64,000 nt of DNA from Saccostrea echinata. Taxonomy: Eukaryota. Below, one piece after another: positions 13,930 to 31,168 of this stretch; positions within the stretch are counted from its first letter, which is position 1; each line of letters begins with the position of its first letter. The stretch covers positions 3,596,001 through 3,660,000 of the forward strand of contig NW_026889751.1 in the NCBI RefSeq assembly GCF_033153115.1. The letters are read 5' to 3'. Both the position numbers and the translations under genes were made by a program. Under the pieces are notes generated by a model. The model did not search any database. It saw only the letters and a program-made list of their open reading frames with translations, and was not told the origin of the DNA.

Positions 13930-15312
13930 CGTTGTCCGTCGTCCGTCCGTCTGTAAACTTTTCACATTTTCAACTTCTTCTCAAGAACCACTGGGCCAAT
14001 TTTAACCAAATTTGGAACAAAGCATCCTTGAGTAAAGGGGAGTTTAAATTGTTAAAATAAAGGGCCAAACCCCCCTTACAAGGGGAGATAATCAAGAAGA
14101 GACAAAAATAGGGTGGGGTCATTAAAAAATCTTCTTCTCAAGAACCACTGGGCCAGAAAAGCTGAAACATAAGTGGATGCATTCTGGGGTAGTGTAAATT
14201 CTAAATTGTTAAAATTATGACCCCCGGGGGAAGGGCGGGGCCACAATAGGGAATCCAAGTTTTACATTGAAATATATAGAAAAAATCTTTAAAAATCTTC
14301 TCAAGAACCACTGAGCCAGAAAAGCTGAAACTTATGTGAAAGCATGCTGGGATAGTGTAAATTCTAAATTGTTAAAATCATGACCCCCGGGGGAAGGGTG
14401 GGGCCACAATAGGGAATCCAAATTTTACATTGAAATATATAGAAAAAATCTTTAAAAATCTTCTTCTCAAGAACCACTGGGCCAGAAAAGCTGAAACTTA
14501 TGTGGAAACATCCTGGGTTAGTGTATATTTTAAATTGTTCAAATCATGACCCCCGGGGGAAGGGCGGGGCCACAATAGGGAATCCAAGATTTACATTGAA
14601 ATATATAGAAAAAATCTTTAAAAATCTTCTTCTCAAGAACCACTGGGCCAGAAAAGCTGAAACTTATGTGGAAGCATGCTGGGGTAGTGTAGATTCTAAA
14701 TTGTTAAAATCATGACCCCCGGGGGAAGGGCGGGGCCACAATAGGGAAGTTTTACATTGAAATATATAGAAAAAAAATCTTTAAAAATCTTCTTCTCAAG
14801 AACCATTGGGCCAGAAAAGCTGAAACTTATGTGGAAGCATCCTTGGGTAGTGTAGATTCTAAATTGTTAAAATTATAACCCCTGGGGACAGGGCGCGGCC
14901 ACAATAGGGAATCCAATTTTTATATTGAAATATATAGGGAAAAAAACTTCTTCTCAAGAAGCACTTGGTCAGAAAAGCTAAGACTTTTGTAGAAGCATCC
15001 TTGGGCAGCGTAAATTCTAAACTATTCAAATCTTGACCCCTGGGGGTAGGGCGGGGCCACAATAGGGAATCCAAGTTTTACATTGAAATATATAGAAAAA
15101 ATCTTTAGAAATTTTCTCCTCAAAAACCTCTTGGCCAGTAAAGCTGAAACTTATATGGAAACATCCTGGGTTAGTGTAGATTTTAAATTGTTAAAATCAT
15201 GACCCCGTGGGTAGGGAGGGGCCACTATAGGTATTACAAAAAGATCCTCTGGTGAAGAACAGCAGGGCCAAAGTTATTCAGGTGAGCGTTGTTGCCCATG
15301 GGCCTCTTGTTT
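13882..15312 (+). mobile_element. Complete HINE/Helentron-like element with ~165-bp tandem array
   Basis: 5' TTTTTAGCTCACCTGAGCTGAAAGCTCAAGTGAGC, (GTCC)n, about 7 near-identical units, 3' subterminal TCAGGTGAGC and hairpin GCCCATGGGC-CTCTTGTT. Confidence 0.85.
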
Positions 15313-21616: not shown

Positions 21617-21928
21617 CAGGCGCGGATCCAGGAATTTTTTCCAGGGGGTGTGGGGGTGGGGGTGGGGTGGATTCCACCCCGGTCAAAAAATGTCCAATCA
21701 AGAAAAGATCTTGACAAGCAAAAAACAAACAAACAAACAAACAATTACAAACAAAACAAACGTTATGGCCATTCCGCGGCGATGTTGGTGGGGTCGACGT
21801 TTTTTTTTTTTGGGGGGGGGGGGGGGGTAAAGTCATTTTTTATTTGCTCCAGTATATACTTTTAGTAACTCTGCAAATTCAAGGGGGGGGGTGGATCCCC
21901 CCCGGACCCCCCTCTAGATCCGGGCATG
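21617..21928. mobile_element. GC-rich MITE (CAGGCGCGGATCCA...TAGATCCGGGCATG)
   Basis: Imperfect TIRs and poly-G/C tracts; an oppositely oriented relative at about 23654-24052. Confidence 0.55.
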
Positions 21929-24900
21929 TTTATTTGTTTTGTTTTTTCTTGTTTGTTTGTAAACTTAGTATCAGAATTTAACAATAATGTAGTATATTGT
22001 GTATGAGTAAGTAATGGTACAATTCTACAATTTTGTATTGTGTCATATTAAATACACACATTTTAAAACCAGAGAGAGAGAGTGAGAGAGAGAGATTTGT
22101 ATATTCCCATCCCTGTGATGGATACATCATATTATTTCCAGACATCACTAGAAATCTGCCCATACAAAATCCAACTTCATTCATTGATTTCGATTTGTGG
22201 ATATATAGATAATTAAATAGTACTTCGTATTTCGACGCAATAATTTGCGAACCGGCACAGTAACTATCAAAGAATCGGAGCAGTTTGGTGCATTGTCCTA
22301 TTGTACTTAACAAAATTTCAAGTATATGCATGAGGGTGAGGTGATATTACTACAGTAAATGGAGGGAAAACCGGAAAACGCATAGTTAATATTTCTTAAA
22401 AAAGCTTATAGAGTTATTCCTCTTTGGTCCTGTAGAACTGAGTTTTACTTAACATGTCGCCTAATATTATCATTAAAGACATAAATAAAACTTAAGAATG
22501 GTCATCTATTTCTTAAATTTTATACTAGCATTATAATCAAGCGAAGAAAAAAAATCCGCGGATAGTAAGACAACGATAAATAATATTTAACATAAAAGTT
22601 AAACTCAATATAAATTCAAATTAAAATGAAAAATCAAATTGAATTTATTAAAAATAATCATCCATTCATACGAGTTTATTTTAACAATCTCCACGTTCAC
22701 CAAGCCCAAGTCGGTATATCGACCCTAAACTAACGGAACAATCGGGAACATCACACAGGCTTTTCCGTCAAGTCGAGAACAACATCGGCTTTTTCTTTCA
22801 AGTAGAGAAAATTTATTAGTAAAAAAAAATTATTGATAGAATTTCATTTCAACAACTCCTGACACTCATGATCAAAAGTAGGTTTACCGATCCCGTTTTA
22901 TTTTTAAAGACAACTAATGGAACAATCGGAAAATCACATGGCATTTTCCTTCAAGTCGAGAACATCACTGGGCCTTTTCCGTCAAGTCGAGAAAAACCGC
23001 GAGGTTTTATGTAGGTTGACGATAGAGGCTGAGTGAATACCGATTTCAGTAGATCATATACATATATATCATTGCTAGTTATAAACAAAGCCATGCTTCT
23101 CAAAATTCATAAGACATAACAACGGTTCAGAGTATTCTTGAAAATAGGCCAAAGGTCAAGGTCAGGTGGACTGTATCACTGATATTTTTCAACATGTCTT
23201 TTGACAAACAGTGCACTTGCCTAATAGCAAAACTTACCTCTGAAAAGGTCAAAGAATATGTGAAAATCGGTAATATGGTATATTTTGAAAAGTAGGTCAA
23301 AGATCAAGTTCAAAGGTCACGAGGTCGGTAACCCTGGTATTTCACAAAAGCCATTCTTCCAAGCAATAGATGAGCCAAATTTCAAATCCCAACCTTAAAC
23401 AGTTCTCAAGATATAAGGTGTGCCAGGCAAAGTGATTTTTAAGTGTAGTTCTGCTCTACAGGCGACACAAAAATATGTTAATCTGCAAAAATCTCTTAGG
23501 ACTGCAGTTTCAGTTTCTTGAAAAAACTATAACTCTGTCTTGTATAGAGACTTTCAAGTCGTTTGATAAAGGACCATGATTTAACGTGAACCTCACATTA
23601 AATTTAACAAGCTAATTCAGAGAATTTGTGTCCCCCGCCTAAGGAAAAAAGACCATACGCGGATCTAGAGGGGGAGGGGGCGGATCCCCTGGATCTACAG
23701 AGTTATTAAATGTATATACTGAAGCAAATAAAAAATGACTTTGGACCCCCCCCCCTCACCAGAAAACGTGGACCTCTTTTAAGAAATATGTTTTTCGCGG
23801 TTGGGGAAGGAGTTTAGGTTGTTTTTTCTAAAATTATTATTAATTTTTGCTCGTCAAGAAATTTTTTGGGTTGGATACATTTGGGAAAGGAGTTTAGGTT
23901 TTTAATTTTTTTTCTTTTATTATTATTATTGATTTTTTTTTTGTTTGTCTGTGTGTGTGCGTGTGTTTTGCTTGTCAAAATTTCAGGGTTGGAAATTTTT
24001 TGACTGGGGAGGAACCCCCTCCCCCTGGAAAAGAATCATGGATCCGCGCCTGGAAGAGGGTGGAAGAAATGGAATAATTTCTCAGATGGAGAAAGAAAAA
24101 AAGGTCAACCTTGACCTTCAGTTTTTGGTCTTAAGGCCACAAAGATTTAAAAGCTAGATTTTCGTCCTAATTTGCTTAAAAATTGGGGCGGGTGGGCGGA
24201 TTTTATTTTATTTTTTTTTTTTTTGTTACTGTAAACATCTATATAACGATCTTCTTATACAAAATTTTCACATTGTGAATGCCAATATGGATAAATAGTT
24301 TTGTTTATTTATTCTGTAAAATGGCCTTTTTCTAAATATATAATTATATTTTTTTCGTTTGACCAACAAATACTGGTGCTTTGTCTGAAAATATCACAGA
24401 TTTCCACTGTCCTTTTAGTTCTTGACGCGTTCGATATTGTCAAAATTTTACACAACAGAGGGTGTCTAATTTAGTCTTTACTAAACAGTTCTAATAGATT
24501 TACCATAGGACTTAACGTGATCAATAGAAGAAAAATATTTATTGAATTTTGAATGTGTGAAGATGCATAAAGCATACAAAATTGATTGCTTTGAGGAAGA
24601 ACAAACAGCAATGTGCAAGTTAACTGCAGGTTCGATTCTAATATGAATTTCAATAACAGATTTATCTATGGTGAGTAGCAATACCTAGTGTTATACGTTT
24701 TATTCAATAAAAAAAATATTCACTAGAGTAAAATTAATTTATTTCGAGTTTGATACCAACAAAGTACTTTTACTTCAAGAGTTATTGATTTTTACTGGAG
24801 TATAAATAATTTTACTGGAGTATAAATAATTTTACTGAGGTAAAAATAATTTTACTAAAGTAGTATTTAATTGTGAGTATAGCAATTGTCAGTATTTTAT

Positions 24901-25666
24901 TTTAACTGCAGTAAAAATAATTTTATTGCTGTAAAGATGAATATTTAGTAACATATTCATCCAAAGGCAGACTGTATGTATTATCACGATGAAAATTTTA
25001 CTGTTATAAGAGATTTTTCTAGTTTCTAAAATTAAGTTACTGTTTTGTGTTTTTTTGAACAACTCTTTCAAAATTCTTGAGCTTTTCAAATCATTTTCTT
25101 TATTGAATTTACGACTCTTAATCTTTATTGAATTAAAACATCGGCGATTTCAGATAATCCAAGCCAATTGGGTTTAACACCTGTCATCGTTTGATATTGC
25201 TAAATTATCTTTATGCAAAATAACATCAAAAGGACGATAATCTGGCCCTCAATTATTTTAAGGGTTTACTCAAGTGTCAAAACCTTTATCTATTTATCTC
25301 CAAATGTCATTTTTACACATGTCACTCTATAATTGTTATATACACTGTATACTGTTGAATTTGGTTTGGATGAGCAGTCGGAATCGGACAGCCGTCCCGA
25401 GTACACCGACCTGTATCAAAATTTGTCAGTTCCATATTAAAAGTTAAAACGCTGGTTGGAGTTTGTCTCTAATCTGTTTAATAAGACTCATAGATAGAAA
25501 GGAGCGCAGATCGTGGCTGACAGAATCCGTGAGCGGCATCGTCAGGGAACTCAAAGAGAAGTTCTTCAAGCGAGAAATAAGACGTTCATATTTCTACATA
25601 GTCTTATTTTAGCACAGCCTGAGTGTTGATCGGGCGAGATAATTTTTTTTTTTAAATTGTGCTAAT

Positions 25667-25682
25667 TGGTGGAGAATCCGGG
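25667..25682 (+). promoter_or_regulatory. tRNA primer-binding site (tRNA-Ala-like)
   Basis: TGGTGGAGAATCCGGG directly after repeat A1; its reverse complement ...TTCTCCACCA resembles a tRNA-Ala 3' end. Confidence 0.75.
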
Positions 25683-25767
25683 TACAACACCACCTCTCAT
25701 GAAGCTAAGCGAGTATTCCCCAAATCTCAAAGTTTCCGAGGACGACCAGCTTTAACATTGGACTGGC

Positions 25768-26430
25768 ATGCAGTTCCGACCACAGTGGCAGGTTTCAGCG
25801 CCGCTTTGCAGCAGATGTAACAGACGGCATTACTCCGTCTGCAACGCCTTGGAGAAACGCTGCCATAGATGTGGAGAAGAGGGACACTTTAGCAGAGTGT
25901 GCGGAGAACGTTCGTGCCGCGCTGTAAAATCGGATGCAAAGAGGAAAAGGGACACCGAACGACTGCAGGATTACAACAGCAGGAAAAGGTTGTTCCGGGT
26001 ACTTCCGTTTGCAAACATAAGTGATTCCAAATTTAAAGAGTGTGTCAATTTAAAGTCAGTGTTTTCATCAGAAGTTCAGTCCGTGGTAAAAGATCTCCAA
26101 TATACAAAAGCGCTAATGAAAATGGACATTGAAATCCTAGAATGGAAATTGCAGAAACAGTCAAAGTCGAACGAGGAAAAAGATCAACAGATAAAACTGT
26201 ATTCTACATACTTAAACTATGCCGTGTCAGATCTAAAGAAACTTTCCGGACTTGTTTCCCATTACAACTGGCTTCTGGAAAATTATGAAATGGAACACAT
26301 CGTACTGCGATCAATCAAACAGAACTGTATGTGTAAAAGAGATGTTGAAAACAGTAAACTTGTCCGAAGGGAATATAGACAGTTTAAAGATTCTGAATTA
26401 TACAAAGAAATTTTGAACACTAAATTTTGA
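25768..26430 (+). CDS. Gag-like protein with two zinc knuckles and a coiled coil (220 aa)
   Basis: CSRCNRRHYSVC and CHRCGEEGHFSRVC (CX2CX4HX4C); an in-frame upstream ATG at 25699 is cut off by TAA at 25753. Confidence 0.7.
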   Translation: MQFRPQWQVSAPLCSRCNRRHYSVCNALEKRCHRCGEEGHFSRVCGERSCRAVKSDAKRKRDTERLQDYNSRKRLFRVLPFANISDSKFKECVNLKSVFSSEVQSVVKDLQYTKALMKMDIEILEWKLQKQSKSNEEKDQQIKLYSTYLNYAVSDLKKLSGLVSHYNWLLENYEMEHIVLRSIKQNCMCKRDVENSKLVRREYRQFKDSELYKEILNTKF

Positions 26431-27743
26431 ATATTTACTATTGCACAATGTTAATTTTATATTTACATGTGTATATTTTTTTTAAGTTTGAGGACAAACT
26501 TTTTGTGGCAAGGGGAGAATTGTCATATACAAATTTAAATTGAAAAATTCTAAATTTTTGTATAGGACAGATTATCACGATGAAAATTTTACTGTTATAA
26601 GAGATTTTTCTAGTTTCTAAAATTAAGTTACTGTTTTGTGTTTTTTTGAACAACTCTTTCAAAATTCTTGAGCTTTTCAAATCATTTTCTTTATTGAATT
26701 TACGACTCTTAATCTTTATTGAATTAAAACATCGGCGATTTCAGATAATCCAAGCCAATTGGGTTTAACACCTGTCATCGTTTGATATTGCTAAATTATC
26801 TTTATGCAAAATAACATCAAAAGGACGATAATCTGGCCCTCAATTATTTTAAGGGTTTACTCAAGTGTCAAAACCTTTATCTATTTATCTCCAAATGTCA
26901 TTTTTACACATGTCACTCTATAATTGTTATATATACTGTTGAATTTGTTTTGGATGAGCAGTCGGAATCGGACAGCCGTCCCGAGTACACCGACCTGTAT
27001 CAAAATTTGTCAGTTCCATATTAAAAGTTAAAACGCTGGTTGGAGTTTGTCTCTAATCTGTTTAATAAGACTCATAGATAGAAAGGAGCGCAGATCGTGG
27101 CTGACAGAATCCGTGAGCGGCATCGTCAGGGAACTCAAAGAGAAGTTCTTCAAGCGAGAAATAAGACGTTCATATTTCTACATAGTCTTATTTTAGCACA
27201 GCCTGAGTGTTGATCGGGCGAGATTTTTTTTTAGAAAAAAAAGTGTGCTAATTAATTGTCATATACAAATTTAAATTGAAAAATTTCTAAATTTTTGTAT
27301 AGGACAGTATGCTTCAAAACAAATTAGTATTACAATTACAAACAGGGCAAAATGATCTGCAATTAACTGGAATGGCAAAACGAAACCCAAAGGAAACTGA
27401 GAGAAGAAAATGACGTGAATGTACACGTACACCTGTATTTAATTTTTCTTTTCTTACGCTTTTTTTGGCACTTGCAAAATGGGAATAATGTAAAAGTAAA
27501 TTATTGCAGAACAAATAAAATTCAATAAATAAAAATCATCCGAATAAACTTTTCACGTAGCAGTTATAAAAAGAAGGTAGCAGGCAAAAAATTTATTTAA
27601 CCAGAATTAGTTTTCACTTTTTATATAGATCTGGGTACATATTCAGCATTATTTTTTTTCTGTTGTTGTTGAACTAGTAGTATTGAAAATTCGAACCGGA
27701 TCCACTCCCATTAATAATTGAACCACCTGGTTTGTGCATTTTA

Positions 27744-27903
27744 NNNNNNNNNNNNNNNNNNNNNNNNNNNNNNNNNNNNNNNNNNNNNNNNNNNNNNNNN
27801 NNNNNNNNNNNNNNNNNNNNNNNNNNNNNNNNNNNNNNNNNNNNNNNNNNNNNNNNNNNNNNNNNNNNNNNNNNNNNNNNNNNNNNNNNNNNNNNNNNNN
27901 NNN
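27744..27903. other. Assembly gap
   Basis: 160 N. Confidence 1.
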
Positions 27904-29276: not shown

Positions 29277-29914
29277 CCCTTGTTGCTACCAAACAATGAC
29301 AGAAAATCGAAATTCAAATGGTGTTTTATTTCTCAAATGTGTCTTTGAAACACTTCTTACATGCCTAACAATGTGAAATCGATTTTTGAACTTAAACAAA
29401 CCTAACTGACAAAAAAGTATTGAACCTTCTATACTCTAGATCTCGGAGACAATACTTTCTCTTGCCATTAGTAAATTTCTTCTCCATCGTAAAAGTGCTA
29501 ACATGAGTGGATATCTAAGGTGATTTATGGACATTCTCGTCATAAGAACATTTTTCAAATTCTTATCAAAACTCTTCTGCACATAGGGAATAAAGGATGG
29601 AAGTATGGCATCGGAAGCAAGAAACATAACCGCCGCTCGATATTTTCTTCACATTCTTAAGAGGTAAGCAGTTAAAAAAGTTATAGTAGTTTTACTATCT
29701 TCATAATGCAAGTTAGACCAGTCTCTAATTTTTGAAATTGAACAACATCTTGAACTCATATAGTTTGATAGTTTACTAGAGAACAAATTTTCCAATAAAC
29801 TTTGAAAATATGTGATCATTGGGATGAACATTGGCTGATATGCTGAAAACTTTCTTTGGTCTCGCATGAAATGACTAGATTTTTCTGTTTTCACAGATTG
29901 CTCTTTTGTTGAGC

Positions 29915-31168
29915 ATGCGATCATGTGTCCGATTTCTGACATGGCGAAGATGCAGGAATTGCAGGAATTGTCACAGTCCGTGTCTCCTTCTTACAATTCC
30001 ACTGTTCCTCTGGATTTTTTTTCGTCAACAAAGGACGCCTGTTATTACAGTATTTGCTCATATTTCCAGCATCGAGACAGAAAACCTCCACAAATACTCA
30101 TATTCCAACAACTTTCCACGGAAGGGATGCCCCCTTTCTCTCAATACTAGTCATTTACAAAATGTCCAGGACTATAATGGTTATACTGTGAATAGAGTTT
30201 TATTCCAGTGTGCGCCACCGTTAAACATTTCTAATATTCGAAAGAAGAAACTGGCATTTATGCCTCTTCTTTATCCTCTAGAGCTGGATATTGTACAATT
30301 AGTAAAAACACAACTCGAGGGCAAGAAAATAGTCAATGAACCCATCAATCTACATAATTTTAACTATATTCACCAAGGACAAAATATATGTAAAGAATCT
30401 AACATATTTCTCATTTTAGTTGTAAAATCTAGAGTGGAAAATTTCTTAAACCGACATGTCATTAGGAAGACTTGGGGCAATATTAGCAATTACGAAGCTG
30501 TTAAAATTGTCTTTCTTCTTGGTTTTAACAGAAGTGTGCAAAGACGAGTTGATACTGAGGCTTTGAAATATAGAGACATTGTACAGGAAGATTTTTTGGA
30601 CAATTACTCGAACAACACATTAAAAACCATTATGGGTTTAAATTGGGTTTCCCATCACTGTCGTAATGCCCAGCTAAGCTTTTACGTAGATGATGACGTT
30701 TTTCTTATCGTAAATAATTTCAAAAAATTCAGGAAATCAAGGAACCAAGGTCCTGAAATGATGTTAGGTAAACTTCTGTCTCATTCTGTACCGTACCGGG
30801 ATAATACGTCAAAATGGTTTGTGTCGTGGGAAGACTATCCATTTGACAAGTACCCTAAATATCTTGCAGGATACGCCTATCTCATGTCAGCGCTTGTTGT
30901 TAAGAAATTTGCTCTAGCTATACCTTATATCCAAACTATTTCAATCGATGACACTTATCTTGGTATTGTAGCAGAAAAACTGAAAATTGTGCGCAAAAAT
31001 CAGCCCGGTTTCCTGATGAAGAAACCTGGACCAGTATCAAACAATGCTGTGACGATGAATTTTCGAAATACATTAGCATATCATCAAATATCGTCCCCTG
31101 AGTCTATGATGCAAACGTGGATAGAATATTGTAGAGAAAGTAAATTCTGTTCACCGACGCTTGCTTGA
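29915..31168 (+). CDS. GT31-family beta-1,3-galactosyltransferase / B3GNT-like type II membrane protein
   Basis: First ATG at 29915 after acceptor TTTTCACAG (29896); N-terminal TM segment; ILVVKS, RHVIRKTWG, VFLLG, DIVQEDFLDNYSNNTLKT, YVDDDVF (DxD), SKWFVS...YPKYLAG, IDDTYLG. Possible 5' UTR exon ends at 28477 (AAG|GTACGT). Confidence 0.93.
   Translation: MRSCVRFLTWRRCRNCRNCHSPCLLLTIPLFLWIFFRQQRTPVITVFAHISSIETENLHKYSYSNNFPRKGCPLSLNTSHLQNVQDYNGYTVNRVLFQCAPPLNISNIRKKKLAFMPLLYPLELDIVQLVKTQLEGKKIVNEPINLHNFNYIHQGQNICKESNIFLILVVKSRVENFLNRHVIRKTWGNISNYEAVKIVFLLGFNRSVQRRVDTEALKYRDIVQEDFLDNYSNNTLKTIMGLNWVSHHCRNAQLSFYVDDDVFLIVNNFKKFRKSRNQGPEMMLGKLLSHSVPYRDNTSKWFVSWEDYPFDKYPKYLAGYAYLMSALVVKKFALAIPYIQTISIDDTYLGIVAEKLKIVRKNQPGFLMKKPGPVSNNAVTMNFRNTLAYHQISSPESMMQTWIEYCRESKFCSPTLA

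Follow-up and report, generated by a model that had tools for sequence, protein, structure and literature searches.

Closest described systems

The retroelement analysed here occupies positions 24982–27306 of a 64 000-nucleotide stretch of DNA from Saccostrea echinata (contig NW_026889751.1, positions 3 596 001–3 660 000, forward strand; the whole stretch is referred to as the window). Its long terminal repeat (LTR) is composed of a short part B followed by a long part A. Like the Ty3/Gypsy elements (Metaviridae), it has a primer-binding site (PBS), a polypurine tract (PPT), the LTR content and a 4-bp target-site duplication, and its coding relatives carry PR-RT-RNase H-IN. It differs from them in that the window family (family 1) ends at the B|A junction inside the LTR, that U5 is unused in families 1–3, and that every new copy carries a displaced or inverted B, B dimers arising as by-products. 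By the domain order of its relatives, the window element is assigned to the Gypsy lineage as a non-autonomous LTR retrotransposon; it is young and helper-dependent. The order of events favoured here, with a probability of about 0.68, is a cut by integrase at the internal B|A junction in U3, followed by insertion and then by host repair.

Statements on cited papers refer to the parts of their texts that were available. The split repeats (A1-ORF-B1-A2-B2; ORF, open reading frame) and the solo AB repeats resemble those of Ngaro, PAT and TOC1 (PMC8547959, PMC4157794). Those elements encode a tyrosine recombinase (YR), whereas the related coding elements here have an rve integrase and the insertions have 4-bp duplications; the Ngaro-like layout of the window family is convergent. 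For KnitGypsy-Dnmt3 of Klebsormidium nitens, a figure legend gives DIRS-type repeats together with a Gypsy domain composition (de Mendoza et al. 2018, PMC5890265). That element is algal and carries a methyltransferase; the comparison is by text alone, in which the A-B-A-B layout is not visible and no ends, duplications, hairpin or mechanism are given.

Troyka/Kuafuortervirus and Helenus/Ajax (PMC12440569, PMC11673190, PMC10886601) are likewise LTR elements and are frequent in marine invertebrates. Troyka/Kuafuortervirus was ruled out: Troyka ends in CG..CG and duplicates 3 bp, whereas the ends here are TA/TG..CA, and 3-bp duplications were found in 0/25 end pairs. Membership in Helenus/Ajax was also rejected, as terminal-repeat retrotransposons in miniature with tRNA- or 5S-derived LTR parts do not fit. 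The openly searchable literature (Repbase, Dfam and most subscription journals lay outside the search) yielded no account of a hairpin-linked internal attachment site or of its mechanism; individual families may already be catalogued.

Structure of the window element

The order A1-PBS-zinc-knuckle ORF-PPT-B1-A2-B2, given in an earlier reading of this DNA (the original prediction), is present in the window and also at loci L002 and L004. The PBS directly follows U5 and the PPT directly precedes U3. The parts are as follows:

24978–24981, +: target-site duplication, left copy, GTAT (from the sequence, with the ends set by other copies)
24982–25666, +: A1, the 5′ LTR minus its first 49 bp and the spacer; starts at the internal attachment-like end TATCACG
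25667–25682, +: primer-binding site TGGTGGAGAATCCGGG
25756–26430, +: single ORF, 224 aa stop to stop, first ATG at 25768
26488–26520, +: conserved pre-PPT motif, polypurine tract (26510–26517) and AAT leader (26518–26520), from the alignment to family 4
26521–26569, +: B1, a 49-bp imperfect hairpin TGTC...GACA, both ends attachment-site-like (DNA fold, terminal pairs)
26570–26572, +: 3-nt spacer GAT of the B|A junction, missing from insertion ends
26573–27252, +: A2, the remainder of the 3′ LTR (comparison with A1)
27253–27256, +: raw cDNA end join, T (PBS base 1) plus AAT leader; identical join in L002, resected forms in other copies
27257–27306, +: B2, the stretch of B that the 5′ LTR lacks; the insertion ends on the right with its GACA
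27307–27310, +: target-site duplication, right copy, GTAT (from the sequence)

A1 and A2 are 98.5% identical over 671 columns, and B1 and B2 98.1% over 54; within the first 640 columns, A2 departs from A1 by one substitution and one 7-bp indel, in addition to a differing T/A tract. The outer ends, TATCACG on the left (24982) and AGGACA on the right (27306), are common to other copies. The break had been described as one at which no base was lost or duplicated. Once the ends were set by the other copies, GTAT proved to be duplicated on both flanks, and the spacer GAT between B1 and A2 proved to be missing from both insertion ends; the break appears seamless because GTAT happens to coincide with G/AT. 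The A2|B2 join reads U5 + T + AAT + U3, that is, as the end-to-end join of raw cDNA termini that had been predicted.

Insertion ends and enzyme class

The genome was searched with the window element (56 matches; 40 of 280 candidates scored), and when the copies were aligned at their ends, as the original prediction had suggested, the same A-left/B-right ends were found at many loci. A script that paired such ends across 302 loci returned 27 pairs, of which 25 remained after L114 and L116 had been dropped as cut-off duplicates; L217, probably a chance pairing, was kept. The automatic end classifier mislabels B-left as B-right in families 2–3, and hence A-left/B-right rows alone were counted. 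The pairs came from three families with different LTRs and the same insertion ends. The 4-bp duplication was exact in 15 of them and had at most one mismatch in 21, as compared with a mean of 0.40 and a maximum of 4 after shuffling of the flanks; none had an exact duplication of 3, 5 or 6 bp. Five further exact cases were recognised by eye outside this set (L024, L006/L183, L271, L293 and L291/292). L006 together with L183 is in itself an insertion of about 4.6 kb, bounded by A-left and B-right and duplicating ATAT; its interior is inverted and includes other DNA.

Target-site duplications of Ty3/Gypsy elements are 4–6 bp long and variable in sequence. A DDE integrase is typically recognised by variable 4-bp duplications beside CA/TA ends, and the combination found here therefore speaks for this class of enzyme and not for a tyrosine recombinase. 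To our knowledge, Ngaro and PAT insert without a variable-sequence duplication of the DDE type; in families 1–3 such 4-bp duplications are present. Very probably, then, it is a DDE integrase that uses the internal B|A junction. The non-DDE enzyme (YR or HUH nuclease) originally proposed is at odds with these duplications and ends, and also with the rve integrase of the coding relatives that share B. A profile search of longer relatives had been recommended, with YR or HUH expected in place of integrase; rve was found instead, and no YR or HUH family was detected by Pfam in 16 ORF pieces of a decayed relative (C25) or in two ORFs of family 4, a genome-wide YR search not having been made. Other parts of the original prediction (LTR-like reverse transcription, repeated insertion inside the LTR, the need for a helper and recent activity) are borne out by the copies.

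Families and rearranged copies

Family 1 comprises five near-full-length copies in addition to solo A-B copies. Three of the five (L001, L002 and L004) have internal B|A ends and the order A-int-B-A-B (int, internal sequence); the other two begin with B, one of them without a duplication. Integration at the LTR tips (LTR-int-LTR), as expected of a Gypsy element, is not the pattern of this family. Exact A|B joins occur in the window, L002, L161 and L176, whereas at the other loci the joins are resected to varying degrees. Matches to the A-head pattern are mostly due to chance (25 of 40 stretches had no family-1 match). Family 2 (L072) has the same layout with its own A and B, a 2-nt spacer, the duplication GCAT and an ORF that is 34% identical; it also includes solo and internally truncated copies with duplications.

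Family 3 is a decayed gag-pol-env element (L253–L255, C25) with a 5′ LTR that begins at A, a 3′ LTR that carries B and a truncated right end. A second copy (L291/292) begins at A, breaks off within RT and has B at its right end, with the duplication GTAC. In family 4, LTRs of about 99% identity enclose three open frames: gag (502 aa), pol with PR, RT, RNase H and rve (1392 aa), and an env-like one. The PPT-B-A start of this family matches that of the window element at 76% over 121 nt (small local search, E=3.7e-14). Both coding relatives with B (family 4 and the C25 element) carry RT, RNase H and rve integrase, in the order PR-RT-RNase H-IN, and have the PPT context in common with the window family. 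No coding copy was found that is full-length and has the A-int-B-A-B layout in its entirety: C25 is truncated at its right end, and L291/292 lacks the part from RT onward. The env-like piece of C25 has a weak match to Baculo_F (E=0.00035), and 81 matches to an env-like ORF were recorded in L304–L332, many in open frames of close to 800–850 aa.

In all five copies of family 4, an inverted B forms the left end and U5 the right end, with a 4-bp duplication on both sides (GTTT, TATA, TTTT, TAGG and TATA; one copy lies within a TA microsatellite). Two copies share an identical, precise fusion of the raw leader of B to the A spacer, and the other three have B fused into deleted internal sequence. 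In the 3′ LTR of this family B has the normal orientation, and the flip would therefore not be inheritable through RNA. The same flip occurs in family 1 (L018). Small head-to-head pairs of B (47–211 bp) were also found; 12 of 16 have exact duplications, all 16 are distinct, and one fuses a family-2 B to a family-1 B. The 16 are a sample, drawn partly from the first 100 of 430 matches to the B-right motif, and L017 among them sits inside a larger insertion.

Some further arrangements were noted in passing. A fifth type of B is flipped relative to its A in L141; in L148 its leader links it head-to-head with an unrelated non-autonomous element, at the left end of the latter. At L298:102–272, L299:138–298 and L300:122–400, the left ends consist of an inverted B fused to an uncut B-A, with PPT remnants at the join in two of them and several tandem B inversions in one.

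Properties of B and U5

B is 46–53 bp long and self-folding, and both of its ends, like the start of A, read like integrase attachment sites. The DNA fold of B1 has −10.1 kcal/mol with 11 of 12 terminal pairs. The z values of the hairpin are −5.15, −6.31 and −5.68 for families 1–3 (dinucleotide shuffles; −2.98 for an older family-1 copy) and −4.3 for family 4 (base shuffles); 11 conventional LTR starts gave +0.7 to −2.6. U5 has no CA at the usual place in families 1–3, as can be seen from the A1 tail in the window (GTGCTAAT), and in L003, L030, L163 and L180 the U5 tail of families 1–2 ends unprocessed and without a duplication. That the hairpin acts as a viral end is a tentative proposal. A wider one, to which we likewise give somewhat less than even odds, is that in an animal Gypsy/Metaviridae lineage the integrase attachment site has shifted to a hairpin that folds on itself at the plus-strand start. 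Use of this hairpin as one viral end would then lead to a permuted or flipped LTR in each new copy, a dispensable U5, the convergent Ngaro-like layout and palindromic MITE-like insertions (MITE, miniature inverted-repeat transposable element) that arise de novo without a DNA transposase.

Proposed order of events

The insertion ends, the 4-bp duplications, the lost spacer, the hairpin potential of B and the by-products are the observations from which the following order was derived. Reverse transcription, primed by tRNA and PPT, would proceed normally and yield a linear leader-B-spacer-A-int-B-spacer-A-T. Integrase would then cut after the CA at the right end of B in the 5′ LTR only. A likely reason for this restriction, and the simplest one, would be that the plus-strand B, while single-stranded, folds back and mimics a viral DNA end (5′ overhang and CA), minus-strand synthesis stopping at the base of the hairpin. 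Two competent ends would be inserted by integrase with a 4-bp stagger: A-left and B-right where U5 has decayed (families 1–3), and B-right and U5 where U5 still works (family 4). Finally, host end-joining would seal the remaining raw ends, giving A-int-B-A-B in the window family and a flipped B in family 4, with B dimers (B + B), deletions and inversions as by-products; a circle would not be needed as an intermediate. The permuted copy can still be transcribed because R-U5-PBS and PPT-U3-R are intact, and the layout would therefore be remade in each cycle rather than inherited.

A cut of an internal CA-spacer-TG junction that yields processed ends has been described for foamy virus and HIV-1 integrase (PMC1180852, PMC4372172), and the foamy virus reaction provides a precedent for the internal cut proposed here. 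In those viruses the junction is formed from joined LTR tips and the provirus is colinear, whereas here the junction is encoded within U3 and the product is permuted. In one-ended retroviral integration with a mutant LTR end, host enzymes take over the insertion of the defective end, and deletions and inversions accompany it (PMC5041404); L003 resembles this case. Most insertions here are concerted and have exact duplications, because a substitute end would be used.

Several points weigh against this order of events or parts of it. The sequence of cutting, insertion and joining is inferred from the products, and the A2|B2 join of the window is equally expected from a 2-LTR circle. The 5′ B-A is uncut in L003 (B-A-int-B-A, no duplication) and in L005 (B-A-int-B-A′-B′, B-left used, duplication TAAG), and 4 of the 25 end pairs have 2–3 mismatches. 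RNAalifold found no consensus pairs among 10 aligned B variants, the family-4 ends being out of register, and the terminal pairing (8–11 of 12) could reflect two attachment sites and not folding. No empty-site allele was seen in four sequencing runs. As the helper of exactly the window family, family 4 is no more than a candidate: its genomic PBS differs from that of the window family, and it is a conventional family (L120) that has the PBS, the U3 tip and the pre-PPT motif in common with it.

LTR elements are assumed to integrate at their tips alone, and split direct repeats serve as a diagnostic of tyrosine-recombinase elements; the families described here break both rules, apparently by means of an ordinary DDE integrase. 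Programs that detect LTR pairs or classify by structure would misplace the ends of such elements or misfile them as DIRS-order. The product classes (permuted, flipped, dimer, truncated) set limits on the sequence in which cutting and joining can have taken place, and they are relevant to the long-standing question of whether integrase can use internal junctions in vivo. The proposed model would provide a route for tiny palindromic “MITEs” out of retrotransposition.

Alternative explanations

The cDNA might first be end-joined to a 2-LTR circle, the duplex B|A junction of which would be opened and inserted by DDE integrase. The A|B joins resemble circle junctions, foamy virus integrase cleaves LTR-LTR junction oligonucleotides (PMC1180852), and 2-LTR circles of HIV-1 have been suggested to serve as a reserve for integration (PMC4372172). 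The two B|A junctions of a circle would be equivalent, but the 3′ junction (PPT-preceded B, then A) was intact in 14/14 insertions, the family-1 share being all six of the genome-wide pattern matches, whereas the 5′ junction was cut or flipped in 11 of the 13 insertions with a known left end and uncut in two. In addition, U5 integration in family 4 and the B dimers, for which free U3 ends are needed, are impossible from a 2-LTR circle. The circle of the original prediction thus fits the A2|B2 join of the window and could still account for some of the A-int-B-A-B copies, provided that integrase remains attached close to the old ends; as an obligatory precursor it is weakened by the 5′-only cut, the direct use of U5 with a flipped B in family 4, and the free B dimers. 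On balance this route is unlikely. A backward joint of 1579 in X2 (four runs) is expected from repeat collapse and was not used as evidence for a circle.

It is very unlikely that B is a tiny DNA transposon (MITE) that was inserted between PPT and LTR and the transposase of which moves the composite. The inverted ends of B, the family-1 flanks GAAT/GATT, which look like a duplication, and the genome-wide excess of the B-right motif (430 matches vs 137 in the control) would be in keeping with such an origin. The small elements, however, are 16 different head-to-head joins, all unlike one another at the centre, and not near-identical copies of one element with terminal inverted repeats; in many of them the join still contains the leader from reverse transcription or remnants of the PPT. 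Moreover, B differs with each LTR family, its partners are LTR ends (A-left, U5), and the family-2 flanks are not duplication-like.

A PAT/Ngaro-type element inserted in trans by YR or HUH nuclease matches in its A1-ORF-B1-A2-B2 layout and solo AB repeats (PMC8547959, PMC4157794) but is highly improbable in view of the variable exact 4-bp duplications, the loss of the spacer, the presence of PBS and PPT, and the finding of rve and of no YR/HUH in the ORFs searched. A one-off capture or an assembly artefact, which the N block at 27744–27903 (437 bp past the right end, with no contact with the element) and the plain B-A-int-B-A of L003 without a duplication might suggest, is scarcely credible given that the same ends recur at many loci on different contigs, with different duplications and in several families, and that a contig from another sample spans int-B-A with 22 differing letters over 1626 nt.

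Open reading frame, primer-binding site and helper

The window ORF encodes two CCHC-type knuckles (zf-CCHC, a weak match below the Pfam cut-off, E=0.0019), followed by a stretch with weak coiled-coil-type Pfam matches; no RT or integrase was found in it by Pfam scan. It has 61 related places in the genome. Its homologues among 601 candidates were itself and three unnamed proteins, and the ESM Atlas search gave unnamed matches alone, under 0.85. For the family-2 ORF, no longer (polyprotein) homologues were found among 1002 candidates, which is weak evidence. Of the 16 ORF-related loci examined, 10 hold ordinary LTR-int-LTR copies that are flanked at the LTR tips by 4-bp duplications. Many young non-autonomous LTR elements of about 2.2 kb are present in L072–L087 (for example L082:4454–6627), each with one double-knuckle ORF without a named homologue, non-canonical ends (TA..TA, TG..AA) and 4-bp duplications.

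A looser pattern of the PBS had 64 matches in the genome and 3 in the control. We take the PBS to be that of tRNA-Ala (acceptor U70, discriminator A), an assignment for which ARAGORN (6 loci) and Rfam (401 bp) gave no confirmation. In L077, L138 and L153 the exact PBS variant TGGTGGAGAATCCGGG comes directly after the LTR end, whereas the family has a different genomic PBS; insertion of plus-strand strong-stop DNA that had been copied from the tRNA would produce such a pattern.

The helper is likely an autonomous Gypsy element that supplies DDE integrase in trans. The conventional family of L120 (L120:2460–7394, −; also L149 and L127) is of the Gypsy type and young; its PR-RT-RNase H-IN frame, 1645 aa in length, begins about 400 bp after the PBS. 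It has no gag frame of at least 200 aa and may depend on the Gag of another element.

Surroundings in the window

At 29879–31168 (+), 2.6 kb from the element, lies a frame of 429 aa without introns, in which a Galactosyl_T domain was recognised (E=2.2e-46); no link between the frame and the element was seen. Diverged tandem arrays with a period of about 160–180 bp, which match each other, are located at 2178–3891, 14122–15232 and 54038–57898. The region 21617–24052 contains nested inverted repeats (arms of 38–81 nt, 78–87%, 1.8–2.4 kb apart), which are probably old non-autonomous DNA transposons.

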